A stretch of DNA of 17,361 bases, taken from UHGV virus genome UHGV-2175977, one strand, 5' to 3'. Both the position numbers and the translations under genes were made by a program. The DNA is from a virus. Under the pieces are notes generated by a model. The model worked only from the letters and a program-made list of their open reading frames with translations. It did no database searches and was not told the origin of the DNA. Shown piece after piece: positions 15,370 through 15,598 of this stretch (position 1 is its first letter; the number at the start of each line of letters is the position of its first letter).

Positions 15370-15445
15370 GGCCCTTTAGCTCAGTGGTGAGAGCGAGCGA
15401 CTCATAATCGCCAGGTCGCTGGTTCAAATCCAGCAAGGGCCACCA
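15370..15445 (+). tRNA. tRNA with CAU anticodon (Ile2/Met type, ileZ-like)
   Basis: Cloverleaf by hand: acceptor GGCCCTT/AAGGGCC, D-arm GCTC...GAGC, anticodon loop CTCATAA, T-arm GCTGG-TTCAAAT-CCAGC, discriminator A, CCA encoded. Confidence 0.85.
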
Positions 15446-15446
15446 A

Positions 15447-15523
15447 CCGCCACTAGCTCATCAGGAGAGAGCATCAGCCTTCTAAGCTGACTGTGCGGGG
15501 TTCGAGTCCCCGGTGGCGGTCCA
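15447..15523 (+). tRNA. tRNA-Arg (anticodon UCU, argN-like)
   Basis: Acceptor CCGCCAC/GTGGCGG, D-arm GCTC...GAGC, anticodon stem TCAGC/GCTGA with loop CTTCTAA, T-arm CGGGG-TTCGAGT-CCCCG, CCA encoded. Confidence 0.85.
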
Positions 15524-15525
15524 GC

Positions 15526-15598
15526 GCCGACTTACCTCAGTCGGCAGAACAGTTTAGTTGTAACCATCAGGCCACCACTTCAATTCCGGTAGTCGGCA
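15526..15598 (+). pseudogene. Degenerate tRNA-like element
   Basis: Perfect 7-bp acceptor pairing GCCGACT/AGTCGGC, T8/A9 and TTCAATT T-loop present, but D-, anticodon- and T-stems do not pair canonically and no CCA. Confidence 0.3.

Follow-up and report, generated by a model that had tools for sequence, protein, structure and literature searches.

What is the tRNA-like element that follows two well-formed tRNA genes in the late region of this Escherichia coli prophage, and from which gene does it derive? The locus was analysed in its setting, a 17,361-nucleotide stretch of viral DNA (UHGV virus genome UHGV-2175977), referred to throughout as the window. An earlier note, made from the sequence alone, had described positions 15370-15598 as a Stx-phage-like tRNA cluster with a degenerate third member; the coordinates and sequence of this segment agree with that description. 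Our analysis leads to the view that the third element is very probably a non-functional relic (a pseudogene) of a host thrU-type tRNA-Thr(UGU) gene. It occupies positions 15526..15601 on the + strand and comprises 76 nt, including a former CCA end that now reads CTA; the 73-nt element delimited previously (15526-15598) is this pseudogene minus the former CCA end. The identification is based on homology, position, stem damage and sub-threshold scores, to which are added a series of related alleles and a linkage to one particular lysis module.

The window is part of an E. coli lambdoid prophage integrated beside ompW. Prophages at this locus (PPompW) are reported to be usually defective, and their attB sites are not tRNA-related (PMC8112680). 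Positions 15300-15900 are 100% identical to E. coli strain 135 and to further, mostly poultry-derived, strains; the RefSeq record of strain 135 annotates two tRNAs and leaves the third element blank. The late region holding the tRNA array starts with the gene for the late antiterminator Q (13615..14283, + strand; Pfam PF06323 Phage_antiter_Q, E=1.1e-90; also annotated in the identical RefSeq record of strain 135). Directly 3' of Q, two overlapping sigma-70-like promoter matches (14274..14316, + strand; weak consensus matches with 9/12 hexamer positions each) constitute a candidate pR'-type late promoter, on the basis of a position that we take to be analogous to that of lambda pR'; the number of promoter-like sites there is not significant (6 versus 3.3 +/- 2.0 in shuffled sequences). 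The tRNA array lies between the Q gene and the lysis genes. Among the coding sequences of the window, ATA represents 20% of Ile codons, AGA+AGG 24% of Arg codons, ACA 33% of Thr codons and GGA 26% of Gly codons. Such shares of A-ending codons are well above those of E. coli core genes, and the intact members of the array fit the usual codon-supplementation rationale.

Two members of the array are intact. The first (15370-15445, + strand) is a lysidine-type tRNA-Ile2 (anticodon CAU) of the ileZ type: it is called by ARAGORN, scores 72.5 bits with the Rfam tRNA model RF00005, is annotated as tRNA-Ile in RefSeq and is identical at 76/76 positions to ileZ of Stx2a phage F349. The second (15447-15523, + strand) is a tRNA-Arg (anticodon UCU), called by ARAGORN and scoring 56.7 bits with Rfam. 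It is a homologue of Stx-phage argN and shows 10 differences in 77 nt from the argN of Stx2a_F349, the anticodon being UCU in the former and UCG in the latter. With default settings, these are the only two tRNA genes that ARAGORN reports for the window, and both exceed the Rfam gathering threshold, in agreement with the earlier reading of clean CAU and Arg-UCU tRNAs. The likening of the cluster to that of Stx phages is therefore valid for its first two members, by virtue of the ileZ identity and the argN homology, but not for the third, which is not argO-like.

The third element was reported neither by ARAGORN at default settings nor by Rfam at the gathering threshold, which is 29 bits for RF00005. 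A permissive Rfam search of positions 15500-15650 (151 nt) produced a full-length tRNA match at 15526-15598 with a score of 19.8 bits (E=0.049), whose D, anticodon and T stems included pairs marked as non-standard. The covariance model thus did not recognize a bona fide tRNA (19.8 bits against the 29-bit cut-off), and the earlier characterization of the third member as degenerate stands. When compared to thrU, the element displays 15 substitutions: G10C, A17C, T20C, G24A, A27G, C28T, G30T, C32G, T39C, G42T, T43C, T47C, G53C, G57A and C75T. The acceptor stem keeps all its pairs (7/7, as in thrU), whereas the D stem has 2/4 pairs (4/4 in thrU), the anticodon stem 2/5 (5/5 in thrU) and the T stem 3/5 (4/5 in thrU). 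One of the two T-stem mismatches, A52.C62, pre-exists in thrU; in addition, G53 is changed to C, with loss of the G53-C61 pair, and CTA stands in place of the encoded CCA. The T-loop (TTCAATT) is canonical and the core nucleotides T8, A14, G18G19, T33, T54T55C56 and A58 are present, position 32 being a G. The description given previously, a perfect acceptor stem and T-loop with broken internal stems, is accurate, and the T stem should be counted among the damaged helices as well.

These changes have marked effects on predicted folding. The energy of the cloverleaf, counting standard pairs only, is -5.6 kcal/mol for the element versus -21.5 kcal/mol for thrU; the minimum free energy (MFE) is -19.2 versus -22.8 kcal/mol, and the ensemble probability of the acceptor stem is 0.40 versus 0.98. 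The MFE structure contains an alternative hairpin (GCCGACT-TACCTC-AGTCGGC; 15526..15545, + strand) which competes with the acceptor stem; its two arms, GCCGACT at 15526-15532 and AGTCGGC at 15539-15545, form 7 bp around the 6-nt loop TACCTC. In the ensemble computed for the element, the hairpin has a probability of 0.56 against 0.40 for the acceptor stem. The motif GTCGGC does occur twice, at 15540-15545 and 15592-15597, and the alternative perfect hairpin that the earlier note had deduced from it exists, though it is one pair longer (7 bp) than was stated. Relative to thrU, it is created by A17C and T20C. Since the cloverleaf does not fold and the 5' acceptor strand is mostly engaged in the new hairpin, neither processing nor charging as a tRNA would be expected.

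The origin of the element was established by comparison with other tRNA genes. It is identical to E. coli thrU, tRNA-Thr(UGU), at 61/76 positions, as compared with 48/78 for thrT, 48/78 for Stx-phage argO and 47/83 for argN; because identity is so much higher with thrU than with thrT or argO, the element is of the thrU type and not an argO derivative. A BLAST search against 28 Gb of sequence gave thrU-type homology with E-values from 6e-14 to 7e-10, and in 5,421 E. coli genomes the sole relatives of the element found by BLAST were tRNA-Thr genes. On these sequence comparisons, the resemblance to a tRNA is real homology. The trinucleotide TGT is kept at the aligned anticodon position.

Position in the array leads to the same gene. 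Related prophages (~91% identity) carry a four-member array composed of Ile2(CAU), Lys(UUU) or Arg(UCU), Thr(UGU) and Gly(UCC). The element aligns base for base with the intact Thr(UGU) member of these relatives, with a 2-nt spacer before it in both cases, and ARAGORN calls Thr(UGU) at this place, followed by Gly(UCC), in UPEC 26-1, O177:H21, CFSAN029787 and M19. Across E. coli lambdoid arrays the second member is either Arg (UCU or UCG) or Lys(UUU). The Thr genes of the UPEC 26-1 and O177:H21 prophages are identical at 76/76 positions to the chromosomal thrU of K-12, and the Gly gene of the UPEC 26-1 prophage is identical at 75/75 positions to K-12 glyT. A remnant of tRNA-Gly(UCC) was sought after position 15598; MAFFT aligns TTCCAGGCT... 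with the 3' half of glyT, but the score is no better than that of shuffled sequences (1630/3000 and 419/3000 shuffles scored at least as high), and this candidate was rejected. The element is a member of the thrU lineage in the sense of its descent and not of its function.

The phage-borne thrU copies form a graded series. At one end are the copies of UPEC 26-1 and O177:H21, which have no difference from thrU (Rfam score of 73.8 bits, as for thrU itself). They are followed by those of WCHEC035123 (A9C; 69.8 bits), B4103-1 (G30T; 64.4 bits), CFSAN029787 (T16C, T20C, G42T and T43C; 59.5 bits) and M19 (G24A, G42T and T43C; 54.8 bits), and at the other end stands the window allele with its 15 substitutions and 19.8 bits. 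Further alleles in IMG/VR display G42T and T43C, either alone or with T16C, and in one IMG/VR allele (L017) A27G and C28A restore a perfect anticodon stem. The derived G42T/T43C pair of the window allele is found in CFSAN029787, M19, several IMG/VR contigs and L017, subsets of which also have T20C, G24A or A27G; altogether the window allele has G42T, T43C, T20C, G24A, G30T and A27G in common with less damaged alleles. Those partly damaged alleles retain 3-4/4 pairs in the D stem, 3-5/5 in the anticodon stem and 4/5 in the T stem and, unlike the window allele, are all called tRNA-Thr by ARAGORN. By its sequence, the window allele is the most derived end of this family of phage-borne thrU copies, and 12 changes separate it from the nearest allele with full pairing. 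A search for closer intermediates gave none: in IMG/VR, degenerate-pattern scans recovered the window's own allele or identical copies and nothing else, scans of GTDB species representatives gave no match, and a JGI metagenome scan gave identical copies only. Decay also affects other members of such arrays, as the second member in O177:H21 is called by neither ARAGORN nor Rfam, and the tRNA-Arg gene of TUM9803 has IS421 inside it.

The exact allele of the window is present in 20 of 5,426 complete E. coli genomes, corresponding to about a dozen distinct strains, some of which carry it in two prophages; outside these genomes, IMG/VR and the metagenomes each contributed two contigs with it. No copy found differs from any other, flanks included, and each is joined to the downstream segment 15602-16400. 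Among E. coli genomes, that segment is complete in these 20 and no others. The lysis module that always accompanies the pseudogene begins there with a 90-aa holin-like gene (15939..16211, + strand; sub-threshold matches to Pfam PF16080, 22.4 bits, and PF04971, 19.6 bits; 'phage holin family protein' in some RefSeq records). The upstream contexts vary and are of at least four kinds: (i) the Q gene of the window with a 237-aa ORF and Arg(UCU), (ii) another Q gene with Lys(UUU), (iii) a different Q family with a porin gene and Lys(UUU) and (iv) a further variant of the second tRNA. Given that what lies upstream is varied and what lies downstream is constant, the relic marks the left edge of a recombining lysis module; the conserved 3' end of the second tRNA together with the relic likely provided the homology for crossing over. 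The divergence of the element (20%) contrasts with that of the neighbouring tRNA-Ile (0%), so that neutral decay in situ at a uniform rate cannot be the whole story. Arrival by recombination from a more diverged lineage would fit the data better.

Taken together, these observations suggest the following scenario. The arrays of E. coli lambdoid prophages are cassettes of Ile2, Arg or Lys, Thr and Gly tRNAs, reading A-ending codons that the prophage genes use heavily. In the lineage leading to the window, the Thr member has gathered its 15 substitutions and the Gly member has gone; the relic now bounds another lysis module on its left side, with which it would be passively carried, and it would presumably still be part of the late transcript. 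Loss of the Thr member would be tolerable because the host supplies an identical tRNA from thrU, while Ile2 and Arg(UCU) stay intact; this redundancy with the host gene would relax selection on the Thr member. On this account, the element is something that the shuffling of modules among lambda-like prophages ordinarily leaves behind.

The alternative that best withstands the evidence, although we regard it as unlikely, is that the relic is kept as a cis-acting signal for RNase P. Cleavage at 15525/15526, guided by the intact 7-bp acceptor stem and the T-loop, would leave on tRNA-Arg(UCU) a 2-nt trailer to be trimmed by exonucleases, and the acceptor and T regions of the element would be under selection while its other parts decay. 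RNase P separates closely spaced tRNAs in E. coli operons such as valV-valW and leuQPV, and the spacers of the array are just 1-3 nt long. The distribution of substitutions goes in the same direction: none of the 15 falls in the 14 positions of the acceptor stem (P=0.03 when thrU is taken as ancestor, P=0.07 from the L017-type closest functional allele), and only 3 of the 15 fall in the region made of the acceptor stem, the T-arm and the 3' end (P=0.02 and 0.10 for the same two ancestors). This mild sparing of the acceptor region may reflect selection that still acts on part of the element; the statistics are nevertheless marginal and post hoc, and they give a weak sign that the acceptor and T regions have been retained. 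Moreover, the loss of G53-C61 leaves a T stem of 3/5 pairs, the change of CCA to CTA removes a known RNase P contact, and the 5' acceptor strand is predicted to be more often in the hairpin than in the acceptor stem; the identity of all copies means that there is no sequence variation in which selection could be seen. A more elaborate version, in which the acceptor stem and T-loop are kept as a tRNA-like 'punctuation' for release by RNase P of the 3' end of tRNA-Arg(UCU) and the hairpin modulates cleavage, appears to us slightly more doubtful again. If true, it would represent a bacterial-phage tRNA pseudogene exapted as a processing element.

It is very unlikely that the element acts as a stand-alone tRNA-derived small RNA, either as a decoy for enzymes that cleave or modify tRNAs or as a regulatory or stabilizing hairpin of the late transcript. 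Phage tRNAs countering tRNA-targeting defences exist. Here, two substitutions have newly made a stable 7-bp hairpin, an exact outcome that was reached in only 10-12 of 20,000 random-decay simulations (~0.05%, a post hoc figure), and the fold of the element has a z-score of -2.3 versus shuffled sequences. The same simulations nonetheless yielded some new perfect 7-bp inverted repeat in 11-14% of cases, and therefore the hairpin needs no special explanation. The MFE of the element is likewise what random mutation of thrU typically yields: about 40% of the simulated sequences fold at least as well. Rfam gave no convincing family besides tRNA, the terminator scan detected no terminator adjoining the element, which has no T-run, and identical copies carry no conservation signal. 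We also considered a single quasi-palindrome template switch as the source of both hairpin changes. It is possible for A17C, but T20C is also found in CFSAN029787 and L017, which do not have the hairpin; a single event is thus neither required nor demonstrable. The hairpin does not clearly go beyond chance, and we conclude that no function need be invoked to account for it or for the intact acceptor stem.

It is highly improbable that the element still works as an aberrant tRNA, be it a mismatch-tolerant Thr(UGU) or an Asn(GUU)-like tRNA read in a shifted register. The element does retain G1-C72, C2-G71, G35 and U36 as in thrU, which we take to be identity elements for ThrRS, and ARAGORN run at 80% thresholds calls a tRNA-Asn(gtt) at 15526-15599 in a shifted register. 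At that level, however, ARAGORN also makes calls on the other strand that are plainly spurious. Only one of the four stems is unbroken, G53 is lost, the score of 19.8 bits compares with 54.8-73.8 bits for the functional members of the series, and the NCBI pipeline annotates nothing at the element in 20/20 carrier genomes. As for the decaying argO-like gene proposed in the earlier note, the match of the first two members to ileZ and argN of Stx phages speaks for it, but it is refuted by alignment with the argO of Stx2a_F349 (lower identity than with thrU, TGT instead of a TCT anticodon and a 2-nt instead of a 13-nt spacer) and we give it practically no credence.

The reading as a thrU pseudogene has consequences that are mainly explanatory. 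It accounts for an unannotated 76-nt gap in the RefSeq records of about 20 E. coli genomes and it corrects the origin assigned to the element, from argO to thrU. It also shows the tRNA arrays of lambdoid prophages evolving as shuffled cassettes, whose members may be identical copies of host genes (thrU and glyT), undergo a change of anticodon (UCU, UCG and UUU) or decay. Searches of the full-text literature on ileZ/argN/argO, on the 933W tRNA genes with rare codons and on prophage tRNA pseudogenes found nothing directly relevant; a paper on a prophage sRNA (svsR) concerns the cI region, not tRNAs. While tRNA pseudogenes as a kind are well known, this specific relic appears to be unannotated. 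Its practical value is limited, and a new biological question would arise only if the relic were needed for maturation of tRNA-Arg.

How does this locus compare with known systems? The array of the Stx phage Stx2a_F349 (AP012530; a 933W-type array) occupies the same site, between Q and the lysis region; in Stx phages the ileZ-argN-argO genes and stx lie at the equivalent late-operon position downstream of Q. There, the array is upstream of stx, whereas the window has no stx gene, and the third member in Stx2a_F349, which a 13-nt spacer precedes, is an intact tRNA-Arg with only general tRNA similarity to the element. The closest counterparts are thrU itself and its prophage and phage copies (UPEC 26-1 and O177:H21; phages PhiR47_1, vB_EcoM-606R7 and phi467), with which the element shares the acceptor stem, the TGT anticodon and the 3' T-arm, as well as the same slot in the array, 2 nt after the Arg or Lys member. 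Unlike these copies, it has accumulated 15 substitutions, has broken D, anticodon and T stems, lacks G53, ends in CTA, fails both ARAGORN and the Rfam cut-off and is not followed by a tRNA-Gly gene. In these respects it resembles tRNA pseudogenes in general, which similarly combine recognizable homology, a sub-threshold covariance score, broken helices and absence from annotation; its one peculiarity is the existence of graded, less damaged alleles in sister prophages.

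The array member undergoing decay is not the same in every lineage. In E. coli O177:H21 it is the second one (L006:1427-1503), the Thr and Gly genes of that array being intact; this sequence differs from the tRNA-Arg of the window at 12 positions, two of which create A.C mismatches in the T stem, and neither ARAGORN nor Rfam returned a tRNA call for it. The array of E. coli TUM9803, which carries the same tRNA-Thr pseudogene as the window, has decayed further: an IS421 element is inserted in its tRNA-Arg gene (L012:1108-2446), which is thereby cut to 63 nt. Another aberrant tRNA-like cassette member is found in two IMG/VR contigs (L018:10454-10527 and L022:3220-3293): within arrays of five and six members that are normal in other respects, ARAGORN reported a 'tRNA-???' whose anticodon has just 2 nt (cg).

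A mismatched anticodon stem is a feature of the Thr allele G42T/T43C (named by its changes relative to the chromosomal thrU gene), in which only 3 of the 5 stem pairs are formed. The loci listed for it are L008:2503-2578, L009:2501-2576, L013-L015 and L018-L023 (IMG/VR). It was present in 11 of 12 prophage and IMG/VR loci other than the window, a sample made up of matches to a search pattern specific to G42T/T43C and hence biased toward that allele. At L017:4615-4690 (an IMG/VR contig), a perfect anticodon stem is restored by the compensating changes A27G/C28A. The G42T/T43C allele, present in many arrays in spite of its mismatched stem, may still be functional.

The anticodon of the second array member (window 15447-15523; L002:3148-3224; L003:3079-3155; L004:2579-2655) is not constant among prophages, though the cassette itself is homologous. 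The window and CFSAN029787 carry Arg(UCU), UPEC 26-1 and LH50-c carry Lys(UUU), and the argN gene of Stx2a_F349 carries Arg(UCG). Position 33, where a U is almost universal, is a C in the Lys(UUU) version, whose anticodon stem has in addition the compensatory change G31A/C41T; its tRNA-model score is lower (45 bits, or under the reporting threshold). These differences could reflect anticodon switching or, alternatively, the sort of variation in the anticodon loop that has been linked to escape from tRNA nucleases.

The tRNA-Thr(UGU) and tRNA-Gly(UCC) genes of the UPEC 26-1 prophage match their chromosomal counterparts, thrU and glyT, with 100% identity (L002:3227-3380 compared with L005:601-960). 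On the chromosome thrU and glyT are separated by tyrU, whereas in the prophage tyrU is missing and only 3 nt lie between the two genes. Together, this identity and this spacing suggest either a recent capture from the host or continuing gene conversion with it.

Between Q and the array, the window contains a 237-aa ORF (14534-15247, + strand; hypothetical protein WP_029400660.1) that matched no Pfam family. UPEC 26-1 has the same ORF; in other relatives its place is taken by a DNA methyltransferase gene or a porin gene, or is empty. In the lysis/late region by the array, one annotated gene fragment lies at 16434-16703 (− strand) and a second just past the window end (L011:18333-18434); according to the annotation, the fragments of this region comprise a hypothetical protein with a missing C-terminus and an HNH endonuclease that is truncated. 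Their presence beside the array is consistent with a decaying prophage.

Elsewhere in the window, strong Rfam matches to the C4 antisense RNA (5575-5662, 73.8 bits) and the Hfq-binding sRNA isrK (5687-5763, 67.2 bits), both on the − strand, adjoin each other within and just upstream of a Rha-family regulator gene (4966-5814). An annotated RelE/ParE toxin and ParD antitoxin pair (11222-11784, − strand) is located in the early-right region, where the surrounding genes are on the opposite strand.

The window starts with ompW (21-659, + strand), directly followed by a phage integrase gene (705-1835, − strand), which marks the prophage as one of the ompW-integrated group called 'PPompW'. PPompW prophages are reported to be present in 44% of the complete genomes of E. 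coli and to be usually defective (PMC8112680).
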